Source: Dictyostelium discoideum
Lineage: Eukaryota
NCBI GenBank assembly: GCA_000004695.1
Contig: CM000150.2
Span: 4,859,597-4,923,596 of the forward strand
Length of the DNA stretch: 64,000 bases
Reading direction: 5' to 3'
The position numbers were made by a program, and so were the translations under genes. How positions within the stretch are numbered: the stretch's first letter is position 1; each line of letters starts with the position of its first letter. The notes beneath the pieces were generated by a model. It was not told the origin of the DNA, made no database searches, and saw only the letters and a list, made by a program, of their open reading frames with translations. Of the stretch, positions 2,787 through 64,000 are shown in pieces.

Positions 2787-3024
2787 ATGAATATAAATCA
2801 AATTATGTCTCTTTTTGTTTGTTTTTGTTTATTTTCGTCAATATACTTAATAAATACTGTTCATTCACAAGGACCTTTCCCATATAATACTACTGAGGGT
2901 TGTTCGATGAATGGTTTAAATGCAAGTTATATTGAAAGTGGTCTTTATCCACCTGTAAGTAGAGGAGAATAAAATAAAATAAAATAAAATAATTTTGTTA
3001 ATTTTTTTAAGCAAAAAGTATTAA

Positions 3025-3062
<38 letters not shown>

Positions 3063-7353: not shown

Positions 7354-12972
<5,619 letters not shown>

Positions 12973-13496
12973 TAAAAATATTAAAAAATGAAAAAAATTA
13001 TTATTAATTAATATAATAATAAAAAATAAAATAATATTTAGTTTTTATTACTTTAATATTCAAAACTAAAAAATGAATAAATAAAAATTCTTCTTTTTAA
13101 TTTTTTTAACTAATTTATTCAAAATTTTTTTAGTTTTCCAAAATATATTTTCCTCTTTGGCAATATCTATTCATATCTTTTTTTTACAGATAAAAAACTT
13201 TTTTTTTCTAATATCTAATAAATTTAGTTATATTTTTTTTTTTTTTTTTAAGAATTGAAGTTTCCCTCTTTGAAATTTTTTTTTTTTTCTTTATAGGAAA
13301 ATAAATTTTAAAAGGAAGGAAAAAATTGATTTTTAATTTTTTTTTTACAGAAATAAATGTGGAATAATCACATGTTTTTATTTAAAATAAGTAAATTGTT
13401 TGTTTTTAAATATTTGAATTTGAAACTTTAAAGTAATTAGATTTTTTTTCTTTTTTTTTTTTTTATTTTTAATACAATATACACAAGAATAATTTA

Positions 13497-13537
<41 letters not shown>

Positions 13538-13540
13538 AAA

Positions 13541-15239
13541 TTAATTTAGAGATAAGAATTTGACTCGGATAAATTGATTTCCTTGAATTTTTTGTCCATC
13601 AAGATTTTGTTGAGCTAAAATTGCATTTTCTGCATTATTAAAAGATATGAAACATTTTGTTTTGTTACTATTTGGATTTATATTTATCTATTTTATAAAA
13701 TGATAATAATTAGTAACCAATTTGAAAGAAAAAAAAAAAAAAAAAAAAAAAAGGTAAATTCCAAATAAAACACTTACATTTATACTTTTTAAATCTCCAT
13801 ATTTTGAAAAAATCTGGATTAAATTTGAATATTCTAAACTTCCTTTAAATGTGCAAACCAAAATTGAAACTGAATTATTATTTATAGTTTTAGTATATTT
13901 TGGTGAGGATGGTGGTGATTGTTGTTGCGGTTGTTGTGGTTGTTGAGGTTGGTATTGTTGTGCGTATACAATTGGTTGTTGTGGTTGTGGAATATGATGA
14001 TGATGATGATAATAATATGATGTTGCTGTTGGATATACGTAATAATTTTGATCAGTTGGTTGCCATGAATAACTTTGTTGTGGGGAAGTGGAATGTAATT
14101 CCCCATTTGTTGAGTAAACACCATTTGAATAATGATCATAATAATTATTTGAGTATGAATTTGAATTATATTCCTAATTTTAAAAAAAAAAAAAAAAAAA
14201 AAAATTAATATTAAAATTAAAATTAATAGATAATCTATTTAAACTAAGAGAATATATTAAATATTTACTTGTGATGCATAATAACCTTGATATGGCTCAC
14301 CTTGATAAACATATGAATATTGTGGTGGTGGAGGAATTGATGGTAATGGTGGTTGTGGAATTGATTGTGGTGGTTGTGGAATTGATATTGGTTGTATTGA
14401 TTGTTGCTGCTGTTGTTGTAGTTGTTGAGATGATTGATTATTATTATATTTTTGTGGTTGTGGAGATGATGGACGTTGAGGTTGATTTGGAGAAGATGAA
14501 CGATTTGGAATATTTGTTAAAGAAGAAATTGAGTTAGTTGTGGGACTTGGTGTTAAAGAAGATGTTGATGATATAGATGAATTTGATAATGATAAATAAG
14601 GAATTTGAATTGATTGTTTTTTACCATTAGGTGCATACTTAACTATTTTTTTTTAAAGAAAATATATACATATATACGTACATATTAATATTTGTTTTTT
14701 TTTTTAAGGAATATAAAATAAAATAATATCTTACCAACTAAAGGAGTTTCACCTAAAATTAAAGAACCAGACATTGATTGTAAAGCATTTGTTGAATAAT
14801 GAATATTTGAGAATTTAATAACGCCGGCTCTCTTACTTTTTCCACTACTGGCATCAATTAAAACTTGAGCCTCAATAACTTCACCAAATTGAGAGAATGT
14901 TGAGTTTAAAATTGCATCAGTAATTGTTGGTGATAATACTCTAACATAAAGAGTATTTGATGGATCTCTTTGTTGTTCAGTTTGGGATGGTGAAGTAGTT
15001 GCACCACCATTTGAATCTGGTACACAACAACTAATACCACCATTTCCATTGTTACCTACAAATGGAGACACTGGTGGTGAATTTGATGGTTTCGATAATT
15101 TACATAAAAGTGTCTTATATCCAACTTGATATCTATTCATATTTTTAATTGCTTCACAAGCATTTTCTGGATTTAAAAATCTTACAAATCTATTTAAAAT
15201 ATATTATAATTAATATTTTGGATTTTTTTTTTTTTTTTT

Positions 15240-15282
<43 letters not shown>

Positions 15283-15425
15283 TCATACCCATATCCTAAG
15301 CTATTTCCAGTTTTAATATTAACCATAACTTTTGTATTTACAATTTCTCCAAATTGTTCAAATAGATCATATAATTCTATATTTTTTTATTTATTTAATT
15401 ATTTATTTTTTGGTGATTAAATAAT

Positions 15426-15471
<46 letters not shown>

Positions 15472-15624
15472 ATTAATAAATGAAAAATATTATTTTATTT
15501 AAAATTCAAGAGTATTACCTTTTTCTGAAAAATTACATGGTAAATATTTTACAAAAACATTACAAATATCAACTTCGGAATCTAATTCAAATTCTTGACT
15601 TATTGGTTCAACTTCCATTTTCAT
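13541..15624 (-). CDS. RNA-binding protein with three RRM domains (MSSP/RBMS-like arrangement), 6 exons
   Basis: Minus-strand exons 15519..15624, 15289..15376, 14735..15189, 14269..14642, 13778..14173 and 13541..13687. RRM1 has RNP2 NVFVKYLP and RNP1 GYGFVRF, the latter split by an intron and restored only after splicing. The LLCKLSKP linker resembles the RBMS EPLLCKFAD. RRM2 reads LYVRVLSP...SGKSKRAGVIKF. The middle is a P/Q/S-rich region, and the C-terminal RRM-like domain reads ...LVCTFKGSLEY...KCFISFNNAENAILAQQNLDGQKIQG. Confidence 0.75.
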
Positions 15625-15742
15625 TTTTTTTTTTTTTTTATTTTAAAATTTTATTTTAGGTTTCGGATTGAGGGTGTGAACTTTAATATTTTTTTATTTT
15701 AATATTTTTTTTTTTTTTTCTTTAAATGAAAAGTTAATAATA

Positions 15743-15781
<39 letters not shown>

Positions 15782-38443: not shown

Positions 38444-40291
<1,848 letters not shown>

Positions 40292-40329
40292 ATTTTTTAT
40301 TATTTTTTTTTATTTACAAAATACTTTAT

Positions 40330-43415
<3,086 letters not shown>

Positions 43416-43502
43416 TCTTTTTGAATAATTATTTTATTTTTATTATTTTTTTTTTTTTATTTTGAAAATATAAATTAAAAAAAAAAAAAAAATTGGAAAG
43501 TG

Positions 43503-43553
<51 letters not shown>

Positions 43554-43645
43554 CGTGTTTTTGGTAAAAATAGTTTTTTTTTTTTTACTTTTTTTTTTTT
43601 AGGTTTTAAAATATAAAAACTAGTTAATAAAAAAAAAAAAAAAAA

Positions 43646-45225
<1,580 letters not shown>

Positions 45226-45326
45226 AAAAAAAAAAACAAATAAATAATTAAATAAATAATAAAAAAGAAAAATTGATTGGATCAATTTTTGTATTTTTTT
45301 AAAAAAAAAAAAAAGTAAATAATTTA

Positions 45327-46481
<1,155 letters not shown>

Positions 46482-46616
46482 TTAAAAAATTTCAAAAAAA
46501 AATAAATCTTTTTTTATTTTTTTTTATTTTTTTTTTTTTTCTAAAAATATCTATTTATTATTTTTTTTATTTTTTTTTTTTTTATTTTATTTTATTTTTT
46601 TTATTTTTTTTTAAAC

Positions 46617-49225
46617 ATGGAACAACATAATATAAATATTATAAAAGAAAAAGGGGATGTTGGTGATATTTATTTTAAAATTAGTAACAATTTAATAATT
46701 GTAAAGGAGATAGTATCAAATTTAGATGTATTAGATTTAGTTGGTATTCAATATGTTTGTAAACAATGGAATTCAATTGCAACGTCCAATGTAATTTGGT
46801 TAGAGGCAATATGTAAACATCTACTTACAGTTTATTGTTTAATGTACTCTGTAGAGGATGGCCATTTATATTCCTCTCAATATTCAAAAATTGAATCGAT
46901 AATAATAAAAAATAATTGTAATAATATCAACAACAACGGCAACAACTATTGTAATTTGGTTAAAAAGTATCAACAAATAGATAGTGTTGAAAATTTTAAA
47001 AAAGTTTTTGGATGCGACTTTTCAACAAATAGAGTTCAAATTTCAAAGGTATTAACTAAAACATCACCACTTTTACCACAAAACCATTATAAAACTGTAT
47101 TTATGAAATTATTTTATCAATATTACCAAGCAATAGTTTTGGTTGATAAACATAGAGAATTTTTCAAACAAAAAATATTTTGTTCAAGTTTTGATATCAT
47201 TTTTCCAAATATTTTTATCTTACCAAATTCAAACTTTTTAAATAATAATTCGACATTTATAACAAATTCAATAAATTCAACAAGTTTAACAAATTCAACA
47301 AATTTAACAAATTCAACAAATTCAACAAATTCAACAAATTCAACAAATAATTTAAATACGAATACAGGCTTTTATAATACATTAGATGATTTAACAAGAA
47401 TATCATCACCTGTATACTCTCAATTTAGTTTATATAAAACAAATTTTAAACAAAGAGAGTTATATTTTAAATCTAATGGAAAGAATAAAAATAAAAAAAC
47501 AACTTTATTTTTTTTACTTTTAAATAATAAAAAAAATCAATTGCAAGATAATCAAAATTTTAATAGTTATTCAGTTTCAACAGAGTTTATATTATTTGAT
47601 CCATTTGATAATGAAAGTAATGAAAGTAATGAAATTAACAATAACAATAACAATAACAATAACAATAACAATAACAATAACAATAACAATAACAATAACA
47701 ATAACAATAACAATAACAATAACAATAACAATGACAATAGCAATAACAATAACAATAACAATAACAATAACAACAACAATAAAAATAATTATTGTGATGG
47801 AGATGATAAAATTAAATCGATATCATCATTAAAATCTGTCCAATTCAAAGTTGAAATTTTCGTTAACTATAAATTATCAAATCGTTCGATCACTGAAATT
47901 TCTTCAAATTGTAAATTTAAATTAAATGATTATAGTAATTTAAACTTTATAGATTTTAATTGTAATGAAGATAATGATAATCAAAATAATATTCAAAATA
48001 ATACTCAAAATAATACTCAAAATAATACTCAAAATAATAAAAATAATAAAAATAATCAAAATAATCAAAACAATTGGATTGAATTATATAAATTTAATGT
48101 AAATTTAAAAGAAAATAATGGTAAAGATGGTGTATTTATAGGTGGTTTTAGTAATAATGATAATAATTTTAAAAAGAATGAAAACAAATCCAGCAACAAT
48201 TATATGATTTCTCAATATGAATCACCTGGAGAGTTTTCATCGATTCACTTTCCAGTCAATTCATTTAAAACAAAACAAATCGGTAAGTTTCTAAGGGTTA
48301 AAGGTTCAGAAATTATTAATACAATAAGTGCAGTTTTAGAGCACCGAAAGTTTGAAATTCCTCAACCAAAGAAAGCTTTGTTATTAAATTATCAATTGAC
48401 TTTAGATTTATTTATTTCTGAATTTTATACAAATAAATTACTATTTGGTGATCATAAAAATTTTGTATGTATTTTTTTTTTTAAAAAATAATAATAAATA
48501 GTAATAAATATTAATAAATAATAATAAATAAAAATTATAATTTTATTAATAGTGTTTATTTATTTATTTATTTATTAAAGCCAGGAATTTTTAATTTTGA
48601 TCATTTAAATTGTATTGGATTTTCATTATTAAAATTAATATATATTAATGATGAAATTATTTTATGTAATGGATATAATGTTGTAGATGGAGGACAAATT
48701 AAAAAGGAGATGACAATTGATATATTGGGCGATCTTTATTTCATATGTTCCGATATTAAGAAATCAAATAATGGAACATTTTATGAACTATCACTAACTG
48801 TATCTGATTTTAAATTCATTGATAAACCAATTGAAATTAATACAAGTGTTATAGCCAATAGTAGTGGTAATAGTAGTGGATGTGGTAATGGTGATGCAAG
48901 TAATTGTGGATTATTATTTTCTGTCTCTTTTATTGAAAATTCAATTTTAAAACTTTTAAATCTTAAACACCTAATAACAATTGCATGCGATGATAAATTA
49001 AAAAAGTCAAAAACATTGGTTTCAACTTTACAACTATTATTATTCATTTGGAGGTTAAATCAATTCATTAATGTTGTTTTAGTTGATAATGATAAATTTA
49101 AATTTATTTTTGCAAATCAACAAACTGATCATTCTTTCACCAAAAAATTTAAAAAAAGGTTAAATTCTCCTGTTTTACCAAAAAATAATGAAAATCATAA
49201 TAGATCTAATAAAAAATTAAAATAA
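46617..49225 (+). CDS. F-box-like domain protein with very long N/S/T low-complexity repeats, 2 exons
   Basis: Exon 46617..48464 and exon 48581..49225 are joined by GTATGT...TTAAAG in phase 0. The N-terminal LIIVKEIVSNLDVLDLVGIQYVCKQWNSIATSNVIWLEAICKHLL looks like an F-box. Internal repeats are (AACAAT)n 47641..47780 and (TTCAACAAA)n 47270..47345. Confidence 0.6.
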
Positions 49226-49289
49226 TCAATAGATAAATATTTTCAACTTTTAATATCTTAAATAAAATAAAAAAAAAAAAACTATTATT

Positions 49290-49336
<47 letters not shown>

Positions 49337-49878
49337 GGAGATTTTGTTTTTTTTATTTTTATTTTATTTTTTTTTATTTTTTTATTTTTTAAATTCAAAT
49401 CGGTAATCACTTGAAAAACTACCACCAACAACATCAGTATTAAAATCCACAAATAATGACAACAATCCAATTTTAATAAACCAAAACCAAATTCTACACC
49501 ACCACGTCATTGGGATTGTAGTAATGGAGCTATTCCATTTCACTCTGTACTTTGCTTATACCACCACCAGTAGGCAGTAGTTCCCTCAATTGGTACACAT
49601 AATTGTAGTTCAACTATGAAACCTCATTATTAAATTTTTTTTATTAAAAATGGTTATAACAAAAATAAATTATTTAAACAATTAAGGTGGTTAATAAATT
49701 TAAATCCGATTAGCTAAAAAAATAAAAAAATAAAAAAAATAAAAAAATAAAAAATTTTAAAATAATTCAAACAACCACCAAGGTTTTTTTTTTTATTATT
49801 ATAATCAATATAAAAATAATTACAGATAGCATTCATTTATATTATTATTATATTATTATCATCATATCTTATTAATAG

Positions 49879-49911
<33 letters not shown>

Positions 49912-49914
<3 letters not shown>

Positions 49915-50367
49915 AAACATAGCAAAAATCAAATAGTTTATATAACATTTTTTATTATAATACTTATTGTTGTTAAACCAATAGAATCAGTAGAATGGAA
50001 TGATTGTAGTGATCCAAATGATTCATTTAAAATTGAAAAATTAGAATTTTCACCAGAACAACCAATTGCAGGACAGGATTTAATAATTTCAATATCAGGA
50101 TATTTAAATAAAGAAATTACAAATGGCGAAGCATATTTATCAATTACATTTGATAGAATACCAATTATAAAATTAAAAGGTAATTTATGTAATGGTATGG
50201 GTGTTACTTGTCCAATTCAACAAGGTAATTATTCAACAACAACTATTAATCAAGAAATACCTGAAAATGCTCCACAAGGTTATTACTATGTTAATTTTGT
50301 ATTATATGATCAAGATGATTTGCAAATCACTTGTATTGATGTCCAAATGAATATTACACAATCATAA
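49912..50367 (+). CDS. Secreted ML-domain (MD-2-related lipid-recognition, NPC2-like) protein, 151 aa
   Basis: Signal peptide MKHSKNQIVYITFFIIILIVVKPIES, then a fold of about 125 aa with spaced Cys pairs (WNDCSD...GNLCNGMGVTCP...ITCIDV) typical of the ML/NPC2 family. Confidence 0.65.
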
Positions 50368-51328
50368 AAAACAAAATTAATAATCCATAATATTTTTTAA
50401 CCTTACAATTAGTATATATATTATTATCTGTTTAAATAAATAATTTTTTTTAACCTTACAATAGAATATAAATAGTATTTTTTTTTTTTTCTTTTTTTTT
50501 TTAATGATTGTAATTGATGGAAAATAAAAAAATAAAAAAAGGTTGTTTTACAATAAATACTTTAACATATGTTTTAAAAAAGAAAATAAAAAAAATAATT
50601 ATCAAAATTAAAATTTTTTTTTTTTTTTCTTTTCAATGGAACTATCAGTGGATAATTGAATTAATTCTGAATAAATAAAGTTATTTTGGAAAAGATCGAG
50701 TTATCCCGGAATAAATTCAGTTATTTCGAAAAAAGTTTATTTTCTTTTGAAAAATTTTTCACTTTTGGTATGTTTTTTTTTTTTTTTTTTTAATAAAACA
50801 CATTATTTAAAACAAAAATTTTAAATAATATTAAACAATATTTGTTAAGACCTATAGTAGAATTTGGTTGTATTTATGGAGAAATAAAGAAAATATAAAA
50901 AAAAATGAACTTCGAAAAAAAAAAGGAACATCAAAAAAAAAAAACTACATATAAAAAATAAATCCTTTATTTGAACCCCGGTATTTTTGTTTTTTTTGTC
51001 AATCATACTATTAATTTTATTTATTTATTTATTATATTTTTTATTTTAATTGTGAATAAATGAAAAAAATTAAAAAAAAAAAAAATAATATGGCCAATGA
51101 AAAATTTTTCGCCAAAAGAAAACTGTAATTAAAAAAAAAAAAAAAAAAAAAAAAATAAATTAATTATTTTGTAAATTTTGATTATATTAATTTATACACA
51201 CAATTTCATTACCAAAAAATACTTGGCTATCGGAAATATAAACTTTAAGATTGTGGTTTTTTTCACCATTTGAATAAATGGCTAAACTGTCAGCTACTTT
51301 TGTTCTTGTGTTACTATCCTTATTACTT

Positions 51329-51700
51329 CACAGCAAAGAAAAATGCACCTTTAAAGCCAATTTCAAGCAAATACAATTTAAATTTGCTTTAAATTGGCTT
51401 TAAATTTGCTTTTTAAAAAGGTAATTTTAAAGATATTTTTAAGGTCATTTAAAATTACATTAAAAATGACCTTTTAAATTTATTATAAAGCGGTTTTTAA
51501 ATAATGTTTTAATCACTTTATAATAAATTTAAAAAAGTTATTTTTAATGTAATTTAAAATTACTTATCAATCCTTTTTTAAGCTTTTATTAATTATATTT
51601 TTTAAAATACATTTTAAATGCATTTTAAATACATTTCAAATCAATTTTTACACTATTTATTTCAAATTTATTAAAAAAAAAAAAAAAAAATAAGAAAATA
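51329..51700 (+). repeat. CACTA/EnSpm-like transposon terminus, copy A: TIR CACAGCAAAGAAAAATGCACCTTTAAAGC followed by degenerate TTTAAA-rich subterminal repeats of about 10 bp
   Basis: The same 30-bp terminus recurs at 53270 (same orientation) and inverted at 53875..53904. The subterminal block is made of tttaaa(g/t)g..-type repeats. Confidence 0.55.
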
Positions 51701-52360
51701 AAAAAAAAAAAAAAAATTAAGAAAATTATAAAAAAAAAAATTAAAAAGATAACCAAATTAATTTTAATTCTTTATTTATTTGTTTCAGTGGCAATTGAAT
51801 TCTATTATTATTATTTTTATTAATTAATAATAAATAAGTGTTTCAGTTGCCTTGGGTTTTATATTATTTTATTTTAAATTTTACTTCTCATTTCAAAAAG
51901 CGAAAAATATCAAAAAAAAAAAAAAAAAAAAATTTAATTATTTGTTTTGCATATTTATATTATAAGTATAAACATACATATAAAAAAAGATTTTTTATTT
52001 TTTATTTTTTATAATTAATAAACAATTAACGAGTGCACAGGTATATTATTGCATTAGTGTAGTTTTACAATAAATTGGGCAGATTTTATAGTTTTTTTTT
52101 TTAATATTTTAAAAAGAAAAAGGTATAGACAGGGTCATAGGTTCCCCGTCATTTTTTGAAAATGGGGTATATCCCTCTAAATATAAAATTCTAAGTACTA
52201 AATCATATATCTACTTGCTATAATGCTAAAATTTGAATAAAATGAAAAAAAAAAAAAAAAAAAAAAACGTAAAAACTCGAGGAAAAAAAAAAAAAAAAAA
52301 TATTATTTTTAATTTCCAGCCAGCAAACAAAATGAATTTAAATAACATATCATGCATTAA

Positions 52361-53269
52361 TTGCAGAGAAAAATTAAAGAATTTAAAAATATTATTATTC
52401 ATTATATTATGCATAAAAATATATGTCCATTTTGTCTTGCATATTACCGTTCTTATAAACAATTTTATGATGTAAATGGACATTCCAACACCAAAAAATG
52501 TAAAAATGAACAAAATAAAATTATTACAAATAATCAAAAAAGAGATAGCTTTTATAAAAAATTAATGGATATTACTGGTGAAAAAATAAAATATCCAACA
52601 AATGATCCAGATGACCCATGTAAACATTTATGTAACCAAAACCAAGATGAAATTTTTTATCAAGAAAATAATGAAAATAATGAAAATAATCAAACAATTG
52701 ATAATGAAGAAAATCATGATATAATTGGGTTGGTACATAGTGAGGATGAAAACAATGAAATTAGAATAGATGAAAATGAAGCAAACATTAATAATGAAAA
52801 TAATGAAAATAATGAAAATGAAAATGCTCAAAACGAACCAATAAATAATAATCTAAATAATAATTTAGATAATGAAAAATCAAAAAAAAAATTAAATGAA
52901 ACTGAAATTGAATTTTTAATGTTGGGAATTGAAAACTCAATAAGTTTAAAGCTACTTGAAAAATTTAAAAGTTTTATTGACAAAAATAAAACCAATTTAA
53001 ATCAAATAAGATACACACCTCAATATATGGATAAATTATTTATGGAAGATTTTCAAATAAAAGGAGAAACATTTATAAATAAAAATTATGATCACTCAAT
53101 TTTTTATTTTGAAATTAAAAAAGTATTAGAAACTTTATTAAATAAAAAGCAATTTTTTGAAAGAATAGATTTTGATACAGATTTTGAAACTGGAATTTAT
53201 ACAAATTATAAAAGTGGTCAACAATTTAAAGATTTAAAAAATAAAAATAAAAATAAAATTGTTTTACTT
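52361..53269 (+). pseudogene. Transposon-associated ORF (Cys-rich N-terminus, N/E-rich middle) truncated by the TIR-bounded insertion at 53270
   Basis: ORF ...ISCINCREKLKN / CPFCLAYYRSYKQFYDVNGHSNTKKC...; a frameshift links it to the 52233 ORF. Its reading frame runs straight into the TIR CACAGC at 53270, where the last residues are encoded by TIR sequence. Confidence 0.4.
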
Positions 53270-53904
53270 CACAGCAAAGAAAAATGCACCTTTAAAGCAA
53301 ATTTAAAGAAAAGTTGATTTAAATTGGATTTAAATTGAATTTAAAGCCGCGTTTAAAAAATTCATTTTTAAGGTAATTTTTAAGGTAATTTTTAAGATAT
53401 TTAAAAATGCCTTTAAAATTTGCTTTAAAATAAATTTTTAAGCAATTTTAAAGGTGATTTTAAAGGTGATTTTAAAGGTGATTTTTAAGGTAATTTTTAA
53501 GATAATTTTTAAGATATTTAAAAATACCTTTAAAATTTATTTTAAATTAATTTTAAATAGGATTTAAAGTAGATTTAAAGTAGATTTAAAGTGAATTTAA
53601 ATTTCCTTTAAACATAAATTTAAGGTTTTTAAAAAAAAAGATCTAATTTTAGAACAAAAAAATGGGGATAAAATATTCTATCATTTTTAAATTTTCATCA
53701 AAGCAATCAAATGGTGTAATGGTTGATGAGACTACCCTTTGATAGAGGGTCGGGGGATCGAATCCCTTTTGGTAATTTTTGAAAAATTAAAAAAAAAAAA
53801 TTTTAAAAATTTATCCGTTAAATAACGGCTTCGAACTCAGGGACTTTAAAGCAAATTTAAATTTAATTTAAAGCGAATTTAAAGGTGGTTTTTTCTTCGC
53901 TGTG
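53270..53904. mobile_element. 635-bp non-autonomous (MITE-like) element bounded by about 30-bp imperfect terminal inverted repeats (CACAGCAAAGAAAAATGCACCTTTAAAG ... CTTTAAAGGTGGTTTTTTCTTCGCTGTG), carrying subterminal TTTAAA repeats and a tRNA-like gene
   Basis: Left and right termini are reverse complements (24 of 28 positions). The interior is (ggtgattttaaa)3, (gtagatttaaa)3 and similar. It lies between two transposase-like ORFs. Confidence 0.55.
53703..53776 (+). tRNA. tRNA-like gene or pseudogene (candidate anticodon GAU, Ile-like) with an imperfect cloverleaf and a downstream extra-B-box-like motif
   Basis: D-loop AATGGTT with GG; anticodon arm ACCCT-TTGATAG-AGGGT (5-bp stem, U33, GAU, A37); T-arm/B-box GGGGGATCGAATCCC. 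A second B-box-like GGCTTCGAACTC lies about 55 bp downstream (53830), as is typical of dictyostelid tRNA genes with ex-B boxes. However, the variable region is only 1 nt, and the D stem (GTGT/AGAC) and acceptor stem (AATCAAA/TTTGGTA) have mismatches, so it may be degenerate. Confidence 0.35.
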
Positions 53905-53909
53905 TTAGA

Positions 53910-54722
53910 ATATTCACTGATAGTATGCAGTGTCAAAACAAGAAAGATTATACTATAATGCTGGATATAGAAAATTATATTGGAAATGAATTTAAAAATA
54001 ATAAATTATTATTATTTGTAGTACCAAATGATTGGTTACTTAATTTTCATCAAACAATTAGGGCATTGTTTTCATCTTTTATTGGTAATGGGTTTAATTT
54101 AATTATTGAAAATGAACAAATAGATGTTGTACCGTTTGGACTGACAATGGATATTCCAGAATTTAGAGCATCGTGTAAACTTAATGGACATAATTCAAAT
54201 GAATATGCATGTCACACATGTGACAAACCAAGAGATGGTTTATTTATTTGCAAATCAGGTACATTAAGAAAACAAGAAGATATTACAAATTTTCACTCCA
54301 CCAAACCAAATTATGCTGAACTAAATGCTGATATAGAATTAAAAAAAGTATGGGAAAAAAAAGCAAAAGATATTGGTATCAAAGGTGTGGACAGAGGGTG
54401 GGTCGAACCTTTGTCCATTAATTATTTAAAAACACAACCAGACATTTTACATAATATTTTATTAGGTGTCGCACAAAGATGTTTAAATTACATTTTTGAT
54501 AAATATAAAAATAAAATTGCAAATTTTTTAAATAATTTAAAAAATGCAAAAATAATAGATAACAAACCAAAACCATCAATTTCACTATTTGCAAATAAAA
54601 CAAGGAAAGGAAGAGAGAATAGATCAATATTATATTACTTTTTAATATCAATTAAAAATCAAATATCAAATGATGATTTTTTAATTATGGAACAATTAGT
54701 AACTATATGTTTTAAATTTTAA
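53910..54722 (+). pseudogene. EnSpm/CACTA TNP2-like transposase fragment
   Basis: ...FRASCKLNGHNSNEYACHTCDKPRDGLF... and KGVDRGWVEPLSINYLKTQPDILHNILLGVAQRCLNYIF resemble the plant/fungal tnp2 transposase core (D[VI]MH[IV]EKN...). The ORF has no ATG until 53925 and begins in frame immediately outside the right TIR at 53904. Confidence 0.45.
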
Positions 54723-54929
54723 TTATAATAGTAAATATTGGTAGAAGGGCTCATTTTAACCTATATTTAATATTGGAAGAAGTATTAAATAGTTTATTAC
54801 TTTAATTTTTTTCACAAATTTTTAAATTTTTTTTCCAAAATTTTTTTTTTTTTTCCCATATAAAATAATTAGTTTTTACTTTTCTATTTATTTTTTTATT
54901 TTAAATAAAATTTTGATTACGTTAATACA

Positions 54930-55530
54930 AAATGTGTAAAACAGGCCAGATTTAAATAATTATAAAGTTAAATTTGTTGAAAATGTAATTTCTCCATTTA
55001 AATAAATAGTTTTTCAAAATATGATTTTTTTAAAATTTTCCATATTAAAAGATTTTTTTTTAAAAATAGTTTTTTTTTTCATTTTAAATTCAAATGTTTT
55101 GAAACTGGCTTAGATAACACAAAACAGGCCAGATTTTAGTTTAGTGAAATTTGGATTATTAAAAATTAAAATTTAAATACAAATTCTATAATTTACTGAA
55201 AAATGATTTTTTCCATTTTTTTTCAAAATTTTTTTTTTACATATAAATATTTACTTTTTTAAATTTAGCTTATTTTTTTATTTTACTTTAAATTTTACTT
55301 TAAATATGTAAAAGTGTGTAAAACAGGCCAGATTATAGTTTTGTAAACTTTAAATTTATTTAAATTAAAGTTAAAATAACAAATAGTATAATTTACTGAA
55401 AAATGATTTAAAAAATTTTTATTTTACTTATAAAAATTTACTTTTTTAAAATTATTTTAAATTCATATTTTACTTTAAATTCAACTTTAAATATGTCAAA
55501 CTATGTAAAAGAGGCCAGATGATCGATTTT
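54930..55530. repeat. Four tandem repeats of about 190 bp, each containing AAAACAGGCCAGAT (units start at about 54931, 55121, 55311 and 55497)
   Basis: Direct comparison of the four units; typical of transposon subterminal tandem arrays. Confidence 0.75.
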
Positions 55531-56246
55531 TAGTTTCTTAATTATTTTAAATTGAATTTAAGAAATTAAATAGTGTGATTTTGTAAAATATGTTTTTTAT
55601 ATATATATATTTTTTTTCCCTATACAAAACTATATAAAATAAAACTCTGTTATTTTTTTTATATTATTTTAAATTCCATATAAACAATGTTATATGTCCC
55701 ATGCCAAAATTACCATATTAATTTCAGCAGCCATATTAATTTTGGCATGGGACTTAGGTCTGCCAAAATTACCTTATTAATTTCAGCAGCCATATTAATT
55801 TCAGCATGTACATAGCTGCCAAAATTAATATGGTAATTTTGGCATAGAAAAAAAAAAAGTCAAAGTCATTTAATTAATAATCATCTCAAATATAAACAAA
55901 ATTTTAGTACTAAAATTAATATTATTATTATTTTTATTTTAATAATTATAATAATAAAAAAAAAAAAAAAAATTTTCATATTATTTTATTTATATCTTTT
56001 ATTTATTTTTATCTTTTTATTTTTATTATTAATTTTATAATTTATTTTCATTTCTTTTTTTTTTAGTTGATATATATTTTTTTATTATTCATTTATTTCT
56101 AAGGCTAACAAAAAAAAAAAATTAAAAATAAAAAAAAAAAATAAAATAAAAAAAAAAAAAAAAAAATTAAAATAATTTTTTTTTTTTAATTTTTTTTTTT
56201 TAATTATCTACTCTTCTACTTACTCTTTTGTTACTAACAGATGAAG

Positions 56247-56449
56247 TGTTGTAGGGAATTTTCCATAAAATTTCACTACAGTAGCGTAGTGAATTTTATT
56301 ATTTAATTTCACTACAGTAGCGTAGTGAAAAAAAAAAATCACTGACCTTAAATTTTTTTTTTTTTCAAAAAACAAATAAAGTTTATTAAATTGAAATTTT
56401 ATTTTTTGTTTTAATTATTATTTTATTTATTTTTATTATAATTATTGTT

Positions 56450-56482
<33 letters not shown>

Positions 56483-59400
56483 CAATTTTTTTTTTTTAAA
56501 TTTTTTTCAATTTTTATTTGTTTATTAAATTGTAATTTTATTTTTTGTTTTAATTATTATTTTATTTATTATTATTGTTAATTTTTTTTTTTTTTCAATT
56601 TTTTTTTTTTTAATTTATTTTTATTAATTTATTTTTATTAACTCCCTGAGTTGTTCAATTGCTTGATTTACCATATCACTGTAAACACTGCACACAATTG
56701 AATTTTTTCTAGCTTTGTTACCTCTGGTGCATTTGATGTTTTTGCATTTTCCTTTGTATACAAAAAAGTCCAAATATAATTCGTTTTCTATTACAGTTTT
56801 TACACAATGTTGGTGAAATTGTTTTGATTTTAATTCTAATGCTTCTAACATCATATTTGAATTTTTAACGATTAAAGCATCACCACTATTTACATATAGT
56901 ACTTTGGCTGCTTTTTCGAGGAATTTAGTCAAATTTTCCTCTGAATCTAACTATTCTTCATTGCCATATTCAATGGCTAAATTTCTTAAGAGTTTTATCG
57001 AATCTATTAATTCTTCGATCATTCTTTTTTTTTGAAATTTTTTTTTATTTTGTTTTTTCAATTTTTTTTTTTTATTTTGTTTTTTCAATTTTTTTTAAGT
57101 TTTATTTTTTTTTATTTTTTTTTATTTTTTTTAACAAATGTAATTTTTTTTTATTTTTTTCAATTTTTTTTTTTTTTAATTTTTAATTTTTTTTTTTTTT
57201 TTTAATTTTTTGTGTTGATTTGTGTTTTTTTTGTTTTTTTGATTTGGCCACTTGTTTTTATTTTCTAATTTCCCCATACCCCCTTCTATTAATTGCAACC
57301 AAATCAAGTTCTAATTTTTGTGTCCTTGTTGACTTTGTTTTTGCAACTTTTTTTGAAGGTATCACATTAACGATTTTTCCTATTGATGGTGATTTGGAAG
57401 GTGATTTAAATGGTGATTTAAATGGTGAATTGGAAGGTGATTTAAATGGTGAATTGGAAGGTGAAATGGATGGTGATTTGGAAGGTAATTTAAATGGTGA
57501 TTTGGAAGGTGATTTAAATGGTGATTTAAATGGTGAATTGGAAGGTGAAATGGATGTTGATTTGAGAGGTGATTTGGATGTTGATTTGAGAGGTGATTTG
57601 GATGGTTTAGAATGTGATTTTAAAGGAGGTTTATTAACAATTGGTATCTTATGAGGACGGCCTCTGAGACGTTTAACAGTTGTTACTATACCACTACCAG
57701 ATTGTGGTATAGTATATGATGGTATTATTTGCACTTGAGGTATTGGTGGTACTATTTCTTTTAAATTCATATCCTTTCTCAAACAATTCATTAAATTTGG
57801 CGCTGTTGGATTATTATTTAAAAATGGGAGTATTTCTTCTTGTTCCATTTCATTATTGAGTTTGTGTTGAAATGGATTATCGTTAATGATAGGTGGAATA
57901 TTTGATGGATTGTTAAGAGCATCTTCCAAAACCCTAAATGGATCATTTTGTGTTACCAATTGATGCAAGTTGAAATTGGATAAATCCTTACCAAGATTTT
58001 TAATAAACTGAACCAGAAATTCAATAACTTTCCCATCATTATTTAAATAAAGACCAGAAGTAAAAGAATCAATATCTTTTTGTATGTTTGGCGATGTTCT
58101 AAAAATATCAACTGTTGATTGTTTATAAAGAACCAACTTGTTACCTCCTACAAAACCAGAGTATAAACCTTTTTTTTGAAGGCTATTGATTCCATCTTCC
58201 AAAAATTCAAGTTTATAAAGTTGTTTAGTGTCTTCCTGTATTACCTTATGAATTTTACACAAAATCAATATTTTCTATTAGAATTAAATATAAAATTTGT
58301 TAATTATTACTGTTTCATATATTATTAATCTTTATGTTTTAATTACTTACATTATTTTTTTTAATTTCTAGAAAGAGTACAGTATCACCAACTTTCAATC
58401 CCTTTGGTGGTTTTGAATTCCATTGATTTTGGTAACTTGTGAGATTTTCAAGAATAATAGCTGTTATTTCTTCTTTTGAAACATCTGAAACACCAATTGA
58501 TTGAGAGTCTTGTTCTGATTGCACATTAATAAACAAAGGTACAATACCAACAGCTTGAGATGGTGTCATTTTAATTGTTCTTGTTTTTGTATTATTGTAA
58601 TCATACAAAGCTTGTTTTAATAGTTCAGAAAGAGACCTAGAAGTACCATCAAGAAAACTAAAATTTATTTATAAATGATTAATTAATAAACATATCGATA
58701 ATTTATATTGTTCAAAATATCATACTCTTGTTGTTTTAATTTTGAGATCCTCTCCTTGATAGTTCGATTCAATCTTTCTACCATACCTTGAGTTGTTGGT
58801 GTACGAGGAGCTCCATGTGCTGACTTGGAGCCTGGAAAAAGTTTTAGGAATTCTTTTTGGACTTTGTTTTTAAATTCACGTCCATTATCGCAGTGCCATA
58901 CTTTCACAGAGTTTTAATATAAAAGTTACAAAACATCATATAAAAAATGATTGATACCAAACCTTTTATTCTATTTCGTTGGCAAATGTCACACGTATCT
59001 ACTGCATCAGATACAAAAGAATACAATCCCATATTATAATATTTAGTCTTGTAGTTCCCATAGGTTGCATCTCTTCCTATATGACCTTTATGCATTTCTT
59101 CCCAGAGTGATACCATTCTATAATCATTAATTACTTCTAAACACACTTCTTTTGATATATTTCTATCTCCGCCACAATTCATGACTTTTTTTTCAATTCT
59201 AAATAATTTTTCTTTTCTGTTTCTGTTTTTTATTGGTCAGAATTTAAAAAATGATTGTGTTATGGTAAGGAAAAATATTTACTCATCATGTAAAAATTTA
59301 TAATTTTTATGTTTAGTATTTTCAAAATTATTATCTTCAATAAATTTTAAATAATTTATTCTGTTTCATTTTGGGGAAATGAAAATAAAAAAAAAAAAAA

Positions 59401-59692
59401 AAAAAAAAAAAGTTTTGTTGGGGAAAAAAAAAAAAAATTTTGGCGCAAAAAAAAAAAAAAAAAATAAAATAAAAAAAAAAAAAAATAAAATAAAAAAAAA
59501 AAAATAAAAAAACTTAAATAGAACTAATAATCAAATAAAAGATAATAATTTAATAAACTTTATTTGTTTTTTGAAAAAAAAAAAAATTTAGGGTCAGTGA
59601 TTTTTTTTTTTCACTACGCTACTGTAGTGAAATTAAATAATAAAATTCACTACGCTACTGTAGTGAAATTTTATTGAAAATTCCCTACAACA
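56247..59692 (-). mobile_element. Tdd-4/Ginger2-type DNA transposon (retroviral-integrase-like transposase, TIR-bounded), 3446 bp, with a 5-bp TSD TGAAG
   Basis: TIRs of 100 bp or more run TGTTGTAGGGAATTTTCCATAAAATTTCACTACAGTAGCGTAGTGA..., present at 56247.. and inverted at ..59692, each with an internal direct duplication of AATTTCACTACAGTAGCGTAGTGA. TGAAG lies at 56242..56246 and at 59693..59697. Size, TIRs, introns and the integrase gene match what is known of Dictyostelium Tdd-4 (3.8 kb, 5-bp TSD, integrase-like ORF). Confidence 0.7.
57258..59182 (-). CDS. Integrase-like transposase of the Tdd-4-like element (HHCC zinc finger + DDE core + C-terminal tail with SPxK repeats); interrupted by short introns
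   Basis: Zn finger H..GH.G...C..C (HKGHIGRDATYG...CDICQRNR). Core WHCDNGREFKN...HGAPRTPTTQGMVERLNRTIKE. C-terminal region ...GLKVGDTVLFLE. Tail (SPLKSTSK/SPFKSPSK)n. Junctions fit GT...AG introns (for example, donor GTATGA and acceptor TTTTAG between 58683 and 58608). Confidence 0.65.
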
Positions 59693-59697
59693 TGAAG

Positions 59698-60317
59698 TTT
59701 CGTTTGAAAATCTTTTGGTGAAAAAATCAGCATCAGATTGTAATTGATTAGCTCTTTTTTTACCCGTTTTGTTTTTGTTTGATTGAGTTGTGATTCCACC
59801 ATTATTGGAAGTTGTTGCAGCTTCATGTGTTGATCTAACTTCGGTGGTAGAGTGCTCGATTGCTTTTCCAACTAGGTCATCTGTTGATTTTCTTTTGGTT
59901 ATTTCGATATCCCTTTGCAATTTATTTTTACTTGAGAGTTTGGTGGCCTCTATTCTAGAAGTAGGCTCAGTATTGTAATAAGCCTTTATAATAGCAGAAT
60001 GATTATCTGCTTTATAATGATTACTGATGTGCTGTTGACACTGGTTTTGATTAATCATATGAGAGACACCATCTTCATCTTTGTTAAGCCTAACCTTCTC
60101 TATAATCTTCACTAAGTCTTTTGGGTACCAATTTTTTCTTTTTATCTTTATCAATATAAAACACTTCTTTAATAGTTGCCGTACCATATTCTACATTCTC
60201 AACAACATACTGTTTATCCAAAATGTTTTTCCAATAGCTTATATTTTGTCCACTCAATTTGGTATTATGAAATTTATAATCTATTTTAAATTTTACATCT
60301 TCGTCATATTTTTCCAA
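59698..60317 (-). pseudogene. Frameshifted ORFs of the host TIR element (unrecognised protein)
   Basis: ORFs 60090..60317 and 59698..60187 overlap with a frameshift. The downstream one reads through into the Tdd-4-like TIR, meaning the gene was disrupted by the insertion. Confidence 0.35.
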
Positions 60318-61119
60318 GAGTTTTTTTAATTTATTTTTATTATTTTTTCAATTTCTGTTGCAGAAAGTTGATTATTTAATTTATTGTCTTTACTGAAGAC
60401 CATTTTTTGGAACGAAAACTTTAAAAAAATAAAAAAATAAAAAAAAAAATACTTTTTTTTTTTAATTTTTTTTTTTATATTTTTTTTTTTATATTTTTTT
60501 TTTTTAAATTTTTTTTTTTAATTTTTTTTTTTTATTTTATTTTTTTAAAGTTTCGAACAATTATATATAAAAAAAAAGTAAAAGATATCCCTTCGGTTAA
60601 TTAAATAATAATAATAATAATAATAATAATATAATAATAATAATAATAATAATACTTATTTCGAAATGTTTAAACAATCATACAGTTTAAAATTAAATAA
60701 ATTGTTTTAAACCACCACTTTTTTTGAACACATGAAAATAAATAAGATATAAAAATAATAAGATAAAAAAAGATTTTTTTTTTTTTTTTTTTTTTATTTT
60801 ATAATTATTCTTGTCGTCAGTATTGTTACTATAATTAATCCCATGAGTTTTTTTTATTATTATTTTTAATTCTTTTATATTTGAGATGATTATTATTAAT
60901 TAAATGACTTTGAGTTTTTTTTTTTATATTTCTATGCCCAAAATTACCATATTAATTTCAGCAGCCATATTAATTTCAGCCTAAAATAGTTGGTCTGTGC
61001 ATGCCAAAATTAATATGGCTGCTGAAATTAATATGGTAATTCTAGCAGACATAAGTCCCATGCCAAAATTACCATATTAATTCCAGCAGCCATATTAATT
61101 TTGGCATGGGACAGTTATA

Positions 61120-61930
61120 CAGACCATTTTAAATAATTTCCATTTTTGTAAGTTCTAAAAACTTCCATTTTTGGAAATTTCCTTTTTAGAAATATCCTTA
61201 TAAGATAATATCCTTTTTAGAAATTTCCTTATATGGTAATTTCCTTTTTTAGAATTTTTTTTTCATTAAACTATTTTTTATGCGTCGATCAAACAAAGTT
61301 TGGGATTTTTTTTTTTTATAAAATTTTTTTTCTAAGTCAATTTTTTTTATAAAAATTTTATTTTTCTTCACAAAAACAACTTGGTTTATATAAAAAAAAT
61401 GTTTAAAGTGTTTTGAAACATTTTTTGTTTAAAAAAATAAAAATTTAAAAAAATTTCCTTTTTAAGAAAAAAAAAAAAAAAACTTGAAAGTTCGATTTCT
61501 TCATAGATCTCGTAAAGGCAAGCATTATTTTTTAAAAATTATTTTTTTTGAAAATACCGTATTTGGAGAGATCTCAGGAATGAGAACTTTCACTCGCGTT
61601 CTAAATCTATATTTCCGTAAGGAAATATTACTATATATGGTAATTTCTATAAAATGAAATTTCCTTTTTTGGAAATTTCCTTTTAAAGTAATATCCTTTT
61701 TAGGAAATTACTAAAAATAGATGTCCCTCTGTCGATATGTCTCCGAAAAATCTTAAAAATATCTCCGATACATCTCCAAAAAATCTCTGAAAAAATCTTG
61801 GAATTTCTCTATTTTGTGTACCCCCTACCTCCCTAGATCCCAGGTTGAAACCCAGGGAATGTAACCTTACACAAAACCCCAGGGATATAACCTTACACAA
61901 AACCCCAGGGATATAACCTTACACAATATA
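61120..61930. repeat. Tandem-repeat block, possibly LTR-like: (TTTCCTTTTTAGAAAT)-type units, then three copies of CCCCAGGGATATAACCTTACACAAAA
   Basis: Repeats seen directly. It lies immediately upstream of ORF 62058, which could be a gag-like ORF of a retroelement. Confidence 0.4.
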
Positions 61931-62057
61931 ATTTTAATTTTTTTTAATAAAATTTATTTTTTTTTTAATTTTTTTTCAAATATATTTTTTATTTTTTATT
62001 ATTTTTTATTTTTTTTTTTCATTATTATTTTTTTTTTTTAAATTCGTAACTATAAAA

Positions 62058-62750
62058 ATGTCGCATAATAAAAGATTAATTAAACAAACTTCTAGAACAA
62101 CACCAGATTTTAGTTCTATTAGAAAAAAACAATTCATTAAAAAGATTGTATATGTTAAAAAACAAGAAGATGTATCTTCATCATTAAAAGATGTATCCTT
62201 ATCTTCATCACCAACAATTAATAATGATCTTATTACTAATTTTGATCAAATTGCAGTGTTAATTGAAGATATTTCTATTTCTAATCACCAATTTGAAAGT
62301 AGTGACAGTGATTGTAGCAGTGGTGACGGTTTCAATGGTGGTATCTTGAAAAATAGTGACAATGAATTTGAAGGTGCACTTGACCATCAACATAATTTTT
62401 CTTATAGAAAAGAGGAAAAAAATGAATCATCAAAGTCAACAAAATTGGTTACTGAATCAAGTATTGAAATTGATAGTTCAAATCCAATTTCTACAAAGTT
62501 TAATAGAAGTTATCCAACAATCAATTCATTAAATGATGTTAATTTTAACAAAGAATACTTGATTCGTAAAGATTCTAAAGTCAAATCAATTATTTATTCT
62601 TCTGATGATGAAAAAATTGGTAGTGGTAGTGGTAGTGGTAGTGGTAGTGGTAGTGGTAGTGGTAGTGGTAGTGGTAGTGGTAGTGGTAGTGGTAGTGGTA
62701 GTGGTAGTGGTAGAATCCATCTTCTTTGCCCATCTCTCCCATATTTCTGA
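62058..62750 (+). CDS. ORF of 230 aa, S/D-rich, ending in a (GS)n tract; possibly a retroelement gag-like or spurious ORF
   Basis: Clean ATG, no introns, higher complexity than the surrounding sequence. No recognisable domain. Confidence 0.25.
   Translation: MSHNKRLIKQTSRTTPDFSSIRKKQFIKKIVYVKKQEDVSSSLKDVSLSSSPTINNDLITNFDQIAVLIEDISISNHQFESSDSDCSSGDGFNGGILKNSDNEFEGALDHQHNFSYRKEEKNESSKSTKLVTESSIEIDSSNPISTKFNRSYPTINSLNDVNFNKEYLIRKDSKVKSIIYSSDDEKIGSGSGSGSGSGSGSGSGSGSGSGSGSGSGSGRIHLLCPSLPYF
62620..62710. repeat. (GGTAGT)n hexanucleotide microsatellite, about 15 units
   Basis: Seen directly; encodes (GS)n on the plus strand and (TT)n on the minus strand. Confidence 0.9.
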
Positions 62751-62830
62751 AAGGAATCTTGGATCTCTATCGGAGACGATTGTTCTTGGATAACCATGGA
62801 GTCTGAACACATGATTCAACAATAATTGAG
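62712..62830 (-). pseudogene. Fragment of a Ty3/gypsy-type (LTR retroelement) integrase catalytic core
   Basis: The minus-strand reading LLNHVFRLHGYPRTIVSDRDPRFLSEIWERW matches the conserved h.HG.P..IvSDRD..Fts.FW block around the catalytic Glu of gypsy/Ty3 integrases. The upstream sequence is not integrase-like, so only about 35 aa remain. Confidence 0.5.
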
Positions 62831-63305
62831 CAGTATGTTGGGCATCATACGGCCATTTGTCAATAGTAGGTCGGCGGTGGTGGTCATCAGCTGATGACAG
62901 AGGACCGTTTGCTCATAGTGGGCTTACTGGGTGACTTAGGCTACTATGTTGTAATTCTCTCGATTTGTCACTGTCATTCGGCTAGCATTTAGAGGTTAAC
63001 GTAATCAATATACATTGGTCACAAAAAACTTTTTAATGGTGGAAGGTAAATTTAATGTCACTAATAATCGGTCCGTCAAATTGGTTAGTTAGAGGGCATT
63101 AAGCGTGCTGAAAGCTATTAGAAAGGATCAATTGTGTTGATTCGACCTATCTCTAATATGTTAGTCGGGTATGTCCGGCAGTTTAGCGGCAGGGGGAACG
63201 GTGTACGCGCTGGGTTTCTGGCCACCGTTGCAGTAGCAGGTAAGATCTGCGTAATACTAGTACTTGTCCGAAAGATTATTCTAATTCCGCCTCACCTTTG
63301 TAAGA

Positions 63306-63635
63306 TTACCCGCTGAACTTAAGCATATCAGTAAGCGGAGGAAAAGAAACTAACTAGGATTCCGTCAGTAACGGCGAGTGAAGACGGAATAGCCCAAGGT
63401 TCAAACCTGGATCTCTTCGAGGTTAGGTGATGTGACCTATGGACTGATGGAGCCCGCTGTTGTGACTGCTAATTCCGTTTGGAATTTCGAGTCGTAGAAG
63501 GTGATAACCCTGTTCGCAGTATCACAACAGTTGGACTTTGCCATTAGCTCCACGAGTAGGAATGTCTGAAATTGCATTCTGAATGGGTGATAAGATTCAT
63601 CCAAGGCTAAATATATGTTAGGAGATCGATAGCAT

Positions 63636-63666
<31 letters not shown>

Positions 63667-63900
63667 TTTGAAAAAAGGTTTAAAAGTATTTGACACCGTT
63701 TATGTGGAAGCGTTTACTTGGACCCCGATTAATGACGTCGGTTTAGCTCTAATTCTTAGGTGGCCAAAGTAGAGTGTTACGTGCTGATCAAAAGGGAACG
63801 GACATTTGATTCATTGGTTATCGACGAGGAAGGGACTCTAAATCGGCCAGTTACTAACGGGTGAGATCTGATGTCTATAAAATGGAGGATGAGGCTTATC
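63306..63900 (+). rRNA. 5' end of large-subunit (26S/28S-type) rRNA gene, partial (runs into the N gap)
   Basis: TTACCCGCTGAACTTAAGCATATCAGTAAGCGGAGGAAAAGAAACTAAC is the universal eukaryotic LSU 5' terminus. Downstream ...AGTACCGTGAGGGAAAGGTGAAAAGAAC is the conserved D1-region motif. Confidence 0.9.
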
Positions 63901-64000
63901 NNNNNNNNNNNNNNNNNNNNNNNNNNNNNNNNNNNNNNNNNNNNNNNNNNNNNNNNNNNNNNNNNNNNNNNNNNNNNNNNNNNNNNNNNNNNNNNNNNNN
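63901..64000. other. Assembly gap (100 N)
   Basis: Run of N characters. Confidence 1.

Follow-up and report, generated by a model that had tools for sequence, protein, structure and literature searches.

A deleted Tdd-4 transposon nested within thug-S on chromosome 1 of Dictyostelium discoideum AX4

Which mobile elements are delimited by the two concentric pairs of inverted repeats near the end of a 64,000-nucleotide stretch of Dictyostelium discoideum DNA, and in what order did they arrive? The stretch (assembly GCA_000004695.1, contig CM000150.2, positions 4,859,597 to 4,923,596 of the forward strand) is referred to here as the window, and positions are numbered from its first letter. We conclude, at a probability of roughly 0.93, that at this locus on chromosome 1 of D. 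discoideum AX4 a Tdd-4 element has inserted into a thug-S element, that both are known DNA transposons, and that the nesting is real and recent. A preliminary description of the same DNA had proposed both the nesting and the Tdd-4 identity of the inner element, and in both it was right; its suggestion that the outer element may be undescribed is taken up below. Both families and this exact locus are already on record, and the nested insertion itself is already known.

Base composition in the window is extremely AT-rich, and BLAST comparisons of such DNA were run with low-complexity filtering. When the repeats were recomputed over positions 55400-61400, two concentric inverted-repeat pairs and two pairs of target-site duplications (TSDs) stood far above chance, and alignment of the arms agreed with the two pairs as first described. 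The boundaries below also draw on related copies in other sequences (L001, L003) and on the near-isogenic assembly GCA_054883475.1 (L004, L005); ORF denotes open reading frame.

55689..55694, unstranded: left copy of the thug-S TSD, GTTATA, identical to the hexamer at 61114-61119 and with the same flanks in the L004 orthologue
55695..55896, unstranded: left terminal inverted repeat of thug-S, starting TGTCCCATGCC and carrying the motif CCATATTAATTTCAGCAGCCATA, by alignment to the reverse complement of 60874-61113
55695..56246, minus strand: left part of thug-S (3' side of its ORF) as far as the point where Tdd-4 entered, by comparison with L001 and L004
56242..56246, unstranded: left copy of the Tdd-4 TSD, TGAAG, which occurs singly at the L004 empty site
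56247..59692, minus strand: Tdd-4, internally deleted, 3,446 bp (Ginger2/TDD superfamily), termini TGT...ACA, 97% identical to the cleaned L003 Tdd-4 except for a 388-bp gap
56247..56515, unstranded: left terminal inverted repeat of Tdd-4, in 269-nt arms that are 84% complementary, the outermost 146 nt with 2 mismatches
59424..59692, unstranded: right terminal inverted repeat of Tdd-4, by repeat search and arm alignment
59693..59697, unstranded: right copy of the Tdd-4 TSD, an identical pentamer, by the same L004 empty site
59698..61113, minus strand: right part of thug-S (5' side of its ORF), by comparison with L001, L003 and L004
60874..61113, unstranded: right terminal inverted repeat of thug-S, ending GGCATGGGACA, by alignment to the left repeat
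61114..61119, unstranded: right copy of the thug-S TSD, GTTATA, identical to the hexamer at 55689-55694

The outer element thus has the termini TGTCCCATGCC...GGCATGGGACA and the bounds 55695..61113. The preliminary description had the right end correct and began the element at 55706, inside its true start; the identical GTTATA hexamers that it reported do flank the element, at 55689-55694 and 61114-61119. Its outer terminal repeats of 280 bp are indeed inverted, although they are not a clean 280 bp and align over about 200-240 nt with indels. These repeats are built from the motif CCATATTAATTTCAGCAGCCATA in both orientations (55713, 55772, 60947, 61014 on the minus strand, and 61072). For the inner element the coordinates first given, 56247..59692, were exact, as were the TGAAG duplications at 56242-56246 and 59693-59697, while inverted repeats put at 100 bp proved longer (146 nt with 2 mismatches, or 269 nt at 84%). 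The inner termini, TGTTGTAGGG...CCCTACAACA, agree with the pattern TGTNR...CA. With Tdd-4 and one TGAAG excised in silico, thug-S is 1,968 bp long.

The order of the two insertions is recorded in GCA_054883475.1, which aligns to window positions 40000-56247 and 59692-63900 at 99.5-99.8% identity; the differences are nearly all in homopolymer length, with one substitution in the left flank of about 16 kb. This assembly carries the same thug-S between the same GTTATA flanks, and over 1,955 bp the two copies show no substitution. Where the window has Tdd-4, the assembly runs ...aacagaTGAAGtttcg... and contains one TGAAG but no Tdd-4; this is an orthologous empty site of the kind that the preliminary description had proposed to look for. 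Since the orthologous thug-S lacks Tdd-4, thug-S came first, Tdd-4 followed later and very recently, and the pair is no composite unit. A single composite transposon moving by its outer ends would be in keeping with L003, where a Tdd-4 also lies inside a thug-family element. However, the L003 Tdd-4 sits at another position with another TSD (GATGA), each element has a TSD length of its own, and thug-S occurs without Tdd-4 both at the orthologous locus and in L001; we regard a composite as exceedingly improbable. The nesting could also be an artefact of a repeat-rich reference assembly, with the near-isogenic assembly showing the true state: a 3.4-kb insertion separates two sequences that otherwise show about one substitution in 16 kb, and subtelomeric repeat clusters assemble poorly. 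A mis-join would not, however, produce a perfect 5-bp duplication around complete TGT...ACA termini, and an annotated gene, DDB_G0270824, crosses the junction, which makes such an artefact very unlikely.

Further copies with the same termini and TSD length, which the preliminary description had proposed to look for, were found in L001, L003 and L008. An uninterrupted thug-S at L001:5061-7040, flanked by ATTAAC, shares 97.1% identity with the window element along its full 1,968 bp; L003 holds a long thug-family copy (TSD AATAAG) with its independent Tdd-4 at a different site; and L008 holds a diverged family member of 3,797 bp (TSD TATGGA). The 6-bp TSD seen first around the outer element is therefore repeated in four independent copies (GTTATA, ATTAAC, AATAAG and TATGGA), and all thug-family copies examined start with TGTCCC and end with GGGACA. 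The 5-bp TSD was seen at two Tdd-4 insertions, TGAAG in the window and GATGA in L003. For L006 and L007, from two more divergent D. discoideum assemblies (about 92% identity), synteny with the window ends beyond about 50,600, and no thug-S empty site was found there; in neither was anything corresponding to the transposon-rich segment, which runs from about 50.6 kb to the end of the window, present within 10 kb.

We next consider what the outer element is. Its recognisable parts are an ORF and palindromic ends:

59698..60403, minus strand: thug-S ORF remnant, ATG at 60403-60401, matching P0001/P0185 ('thugS element')
56200..56246, minus strand: end of the thug-S ORF (final codons ...SSVSNKRVSRRVDN, then stop), separated from the rest of the ORF by Tdd-4; excision restores the C-terminus of P0001/DDB_G0271172
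61010..61098, plus strand: precursor microRNA (pre-miRNA) hairpin of the mir-7131 / miRNA_can_D3 type in the right terminal repeat of thug-S, by Rfam RF03716, folding and arm matches

After in silico excision the ORF spans about 250 codons on the minus strand, with two frameshifts at A-runs, and DDB_G0271172 of AX4 reads uninterrupted across the point at which Tdd-4 has inserted in the window. The outer ORF, DDB_G0271172 and DDB_G0271154 share one 90%-identity protein cluster, and DDB_G0271154 is the 'thugS element' in dictyBase naming (PMC12405889). The same ORF is present in at least seven AX4 genes. Moreover, the published thug-S-derived miRNA_can_D3 (Meier et al. 2016, PMC4894637; 5p arm UAUGGCUGCUGAAAUUAAUGUGG, 3p arm AUUAAUUUCGGCAGCCAUAUU, Northern probe CCACATTAATTTCAGCAGCCATA) matches the window only in the outer terminal repeats, for arms and probe alike, where 0 matches are expected by chance. 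At 61010-61098, Rfam RF03716 (mir-7131) reaches 96.2 bits for the minus strand and 90.7 for the plus strand, above its gathering score of 74. The hairpin-capable palindromes noted earlier in these repeats fold stably (-65.2 kcal/mol and z = -13 for 61000-61113; z = -5.7 to -9.9 for other tested stretches), and they are a known source of thug-S miRNAs of the mir-7131 family.

On the strength of these sequence matches the outer element is thug-S, a family name that dates from 2001, and not an undescribed family. The preliminary description had reasoned that it might be an undescribed terminal-inverted-repeat transposon, possibly Dada or IS3EU. A 6-bp TSD is unusual, a Pfam search of the ORF remnant in the window returned no significant family, and a review finds the transposases of Dictyostelium DNA transposons unlike any known transposase (PMC5633606). 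Against this stand the clustering of the ORF with the dictyBase 'thugS element', its presence in those seven or more AX4 genes, the thug-S miRNAs and mir-7131 matches in the terminal repeats, and the existing annotation of the locus; an undescribed family is therefore a most unlikely reading, and its Dada variant is excluded by full-length relatives that encode an rve-type DDE core.

The gene DDB_G0270824, on a 4.92-Mb contig, is annotated in RefSeq and dictyBase as an 'Integrase catalytic domain-containing protein'. Its 769 residues are collinear with window positions 60187-57261 on the minus strand, where the thug-S ORF is fused to Tdd-4 exons, and it carries a window-specific residue (DDLVGKAIEH). 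It has been reported as having Tdd-4 and thugS homology (Strasser et al.), and it is a chimera spliced across the transposon junction rather than a host gene. Gene models like this one are transposon chimeras and should not be handled as host genes.

Within the inner element, the coding parts and the deletion are placed as follows.

56624..57022, minus strand: downstream Tdd-4 coding block, MIEELIDSIKLLRNLAIEYGNEE, a stop at 56951-56953 and then a 102-aa ORF, from the ORF list
57261..59332, minus strand: remnant of the Tdd-4 integrase gene in several exons, by tblastn of DDB_G0270824 (P0184), collinear from 59332 to 57261
57350..57637, minus strand: 12-bp tandem repeat coding the SPxK/SPxx tail, by a repeat family of period 12 and its translation
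58908..58914, unstranded: junction of the 388-bp deletion, with 7-bp microhomology AGAGTTT, by alignment to the cleaned L003 copy

The remnant keeps the HHCC finger (Pfam Integrase_H2C2, PF17921, E = 3.8e-9), the second Asp and the Glu of the DDE triad, the GDTVLF motif and the SPxK tail, and the gene model P0016 ends at its C-terminus in ...RRGMIEELIDSIKLLRNLAIEYGNEE, within the downstream coding block. The H2C2 block is residue-for-residue that of TDD4 (XP_629668; Bao 2010 Additional file 1, PMC2836005), and the VWHCDNGREF...GMVERLNRTIKERISKLKQQ block and the downstream block differ from it in two substitutions, whereas the segment ITKDFAPIVDTEEYSRLVYDLTS...FGKPVK, bearing the first catalytic Asp, is missing from the window copy. 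The intron-containing integrase gene of the preliminary description accordingly stands in its finger, GDTVLF motif and tail, but its DDE core is incomplete, because the exon with the first Asp is deleted. Relative to the L003 Tdd-4, a reference from another assembly from which three secondary insertions were first removed, the window copy lacks 388 bp, namely the 3' part of intron 1, the whole of exon 2, intron 2 and the start of exon 3. Exon 2 (...EEYSRLVYDLTS...) encodes that Asp (…LVYDLTS…).

The same protein junction, CQRNRIK/VWHCDNG, is found in at least six other proteins, from several contigs and including at least four other AX4 genes: DDB_G0292352 and DDB_G0292954 (both on a 3.60-Mb contig), DDB_G0276645 (8.48-Mb contig) and DDB_G0282083 (6.36-Mb contig), with ACTFIT_007128 and ACTFIT_009202 in another assembly. 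Because it recurs at other loci, the deletion is older than the insertion in the window and marks an amplified, non-autonomous Tdd-4 variant. Wells is said to have described in 1999 a deleted Tdd-4 of 3.4 kb with 145-bp repeats and SPXX repeats, which would correspond exactly to the variant in the window. With the first-Asp exon gone, the window Tdd-4 cannot make an active integrase and is a non-autonomous member, defective by descent. We infer that it had to be moved in trans, with integrase from a full-length Tdd-4 working on terminal repeats that are still intact; a cut-and-paste chemistry is suggested by analogy with DDE integrases.

Aligned with the long L003 copy, window thug-S positions 1-1182 and 1180-1968 fall on 1-1191 and 2964-3775, which identifies thug-S as an internal-deletion derivative. 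It is without about 1.77 kb including the catalytic core and keeps both terminal repeats and an ORF remnant in which the N-terminal region of the family transposase is fused to its C-terminal tail. The near-equal lengths of the long L003 copy (3,775 bp) and TDD-5 (3,783 bp) raised the possibility that the outer family is a Tdd-5 deletion derivative, as did terminal repeats of similar length and the adjoining identifiers of DDB_G0290953, which has a thug-like ORF, and a gene listed as Tdd-5 in dictyBase. The agreement in length does not survive inspection, since a secondary insertion contributes 759 bp of the long copy. In Bao 2010 Additional file 1 the TDD5 integrase (AF298206) is Tdd-4-like (HWDEMHKGHIGRDATY...CDICQRNKIKN...) and has no sequence relationship to the thug transposase, and Tdd-5 was rejected; we give a Tdd-5 origin almost no credence.

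Taken in sequence, then, a 1,968-bp non-autonomous thug-S, derived by internal deletion from a thug-family transposon of about 3 kb, inserted at GTTATA and duplicated 6 bp; later, the deleted 3,446-bp Tdd-4 entered that element in the 3' part of its ORF, with duplication of TGAAG. Several points weigh against parts of this account. The window is assigned to AX4 through proteins that match exactly or collinearly; the empty site might in principle have arisen by footprint-free excision instead of preserving the state before insertion; the label thug-S over thug-T depends on a dictyBase gene name, on the miRNA tag and on Rfam; the miRNA_can_D3 arms differ from the window by 1-2 mismatches rather than matching exactly; and trans-mobilisation is deduced from the elements themselves. 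A nested pair of catalogued Dictyostelium transposons at an annotated locus is ordinary and has little significance in itself, but near-isogenic genomes that differ by this insertion are direct evidence of very recent movement of the deleted Tdd-4.

The long thug-family members (about 3.0-3.8 kb) show what thug-S has lost. In the L003 copy an ORF of 470 codons is intact and matches rve, and removal of the 759-bp secondary insertion joins a second coding block to it, giving a 591-aa protein with a match to Pfam rve (3.4e-16) and also to rve_3 and rva_4. Its catalytic residues have a DD35E arrangement (D186, D245 and E281); Integrase_H2C2 gave no Pfam match in this protein, and upstream of the core stands one conserved Cys alone. 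The best NCBIfam match is IS481 (83 bits, against a cutoff of 224 bits), the nearest solved structures by PDB sequence search are retroviral integrase cores (PFV integrase, E = 5e-9), and identity to the Tdd-4 integrase is 28% over 106 residues. An exhaustive HMMER search of 1.84 billion representative proteins found four at E <=1e-30, all from Dictyostelium where identified; the next matches, at E ~1e-17 or weaker, were of the generic rve core to retroelement and Ginger1-like integrases, and the best match outside Dictyostelium (E ~1e-17) covered the core region alone. An AlphaFold model built on a 5-sequence alignment had a mean predicted local distance difference test (pLDDT) score of 32. 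Thug proteins bearing the DDE core were found solely in recently deposited assemblies of D. discoideum and D. cf. discoideum, and none has a DDB_G identifier. In the Dictyostelium literature consulted, thug is treated as a DNA transposon without recognisable transposase, and the review's statement on the transposases of Dictyostelium DNA transposons (PMC5633606) is at the least outdated for thug, which Repbase may already classify.

The nested elements are set in a transposon cluster close to sequence resembling ribosomal DNA (rDNA). Nearby, at 49912-50367, the window holds a gene that agrees exactly with DDB_G0270454 of D. discoideum AX4, which is on the same 4.92-Mb contig as DDB_G0270824. 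The secondary insertion mentioned above belongs to a 759-bp DNA transposon resembling a miniature inverted-repeat transposable element (MITE), of which the window holds a 635-bp copy at 53270-53904 on the plus strand and a diverged relative at 51329-51631. Its termini are CACAGCAAAGAAAAA...TTTTTTCTTCGCTGTG, and its 2-bp TSDs vary (AT, TC, AA, AA, TA and TT). L003 has five copies, about 99% identical, in a stretch of 17 kb (3322-4081, 9149-9907, 11018-11777, 12829-13586 and 15018-15777); a single Tdd-4 copy holds three of them and the long thug ORF one, and 6/6 copies are in the sense orientation of the interrupted ORF. The element contains a tRNA-like segment resembling A and B boxes and GGTAATTTTTAAG-type tandem repeats, and may be a candidate for DDT-S; a tRNA scan of the window found none. 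At 13914-14037 of the near-isogenic L005 it has 122 bp extra compared with window position 53841, a difference that is either a real tandem-repeat length polymorphism or an assembly collapse.

The window copy of the 759-bp element is flanked by plus-strand ORFs at 52361-53317 (318 aa) and 53925-54722 (265 aa). Because the 318-aa ORF runs at its end into the element (...HSKEKCTFKANLKKS), the two are probably one transposon ORF that the element has split; Pfam gave no family for either. Directly upstream of the thug-S site, 54838-55593 consists of three tandem units of about 187 bp that are 60-78% identical and each contain AAAACAGGCCAGAT. On the other side, 63287-64000 (plus strand) matches the Rfam eukaryotic large-subunit ribosomal RNA model (294 bits over model positions 1-613, the match being truncated where the window stops). 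This match lies about 2.2 kb from thug-S, and at the orthologous locus the distance to a contig end is 11.6-32 kb; the region looks like a subtelomeric transposon cluster adjoining rDNA-derived sequence.

What may possibly be new lies outside the window, namely the integrase-type transposase of thug and the mobility of a deleted Tdd-4 variant between near-isogenic genomes. If true and unpublished, the former would supply thug with a mechanism and a superfamily context, and a recognisable integrase-type transposase together with a constant 6-bp duplication would help to classify the family.

Compared with known systems, the inner element resembles Tdd-4 in its TGTTG...CAACA termini, 5-bp TSD, HHCC finger and intron-containing integrase gene. 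Published TDD-4 has 5-bp TSDs, TGTNR termini, terminal repeats of 260 bp and a length of 3,839 bp (PMC2836005). The window copy has a terminal repeat of 269 nt at 84% and a length of 3,446 bp, which is the full length minus 388 bp and small indels. The outer element shares with thug-S an ORF at least 90% identical to DDB_G0271154 and DDB_G0271172 and multiple copies in AX4; nothing substantial separates them, the window copy being merely interrupted by Tdd-4.

For the superfamily of thug we took criteria from PMC10045372 and PMC6839031. IS481EU, for which PMC10045372 gives TSDs of about 4, 15 or 25 bp and parabasalids as the only hosts, was rejected on the 6-bp TSD of all four copies, and Ginger2/TDD was rejected on the missing H2C2 match and a TSD of 6 rather than 4-5 bp. 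A literature search on IS3EU in Dictyostelium gave nothing relevant. Dada elements have a non-rve transposase and 6-7-bp TSDs and insert in small-RNA genes, whereas thug-family targets are AT-rich non-genic or transposable-element sequence. Likeness to IS481 consists in the best NCBIfam match, TG..CA termini and the 6-bp TSDs of most prokaryotic IS481 elements; however, the score is far under the cutoff and the nearest HMMER neighbours are eukaryotic retroelement integrases. IS3EU and GingerRoot share with thug the 6-bp TSD, long terminal repeats and a DDE core of integrase type that has no HHCC finger, and the IS3EU-like candidacy raised at the outset fits on TSD and finger but not on the termini, which in thug are TGT...ACA and in these groups usually TA...TA (occasionally TG...CA in GingerRoot); thug targets are also AT-rich rather than GC-rich. 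Judged by sequence features, thug may be a third integrase-type family in D. discoideum, although we hold this less likely than not: an orphan lineage with an HHCC-less DD35E rve transposase, 6-bp TSDs and TGT...ACA termini. On this reading thug would combine a TSD and a lack of zinc finger like those of IS3EU and GingerRoot with termini like those of Ginger and IS481.

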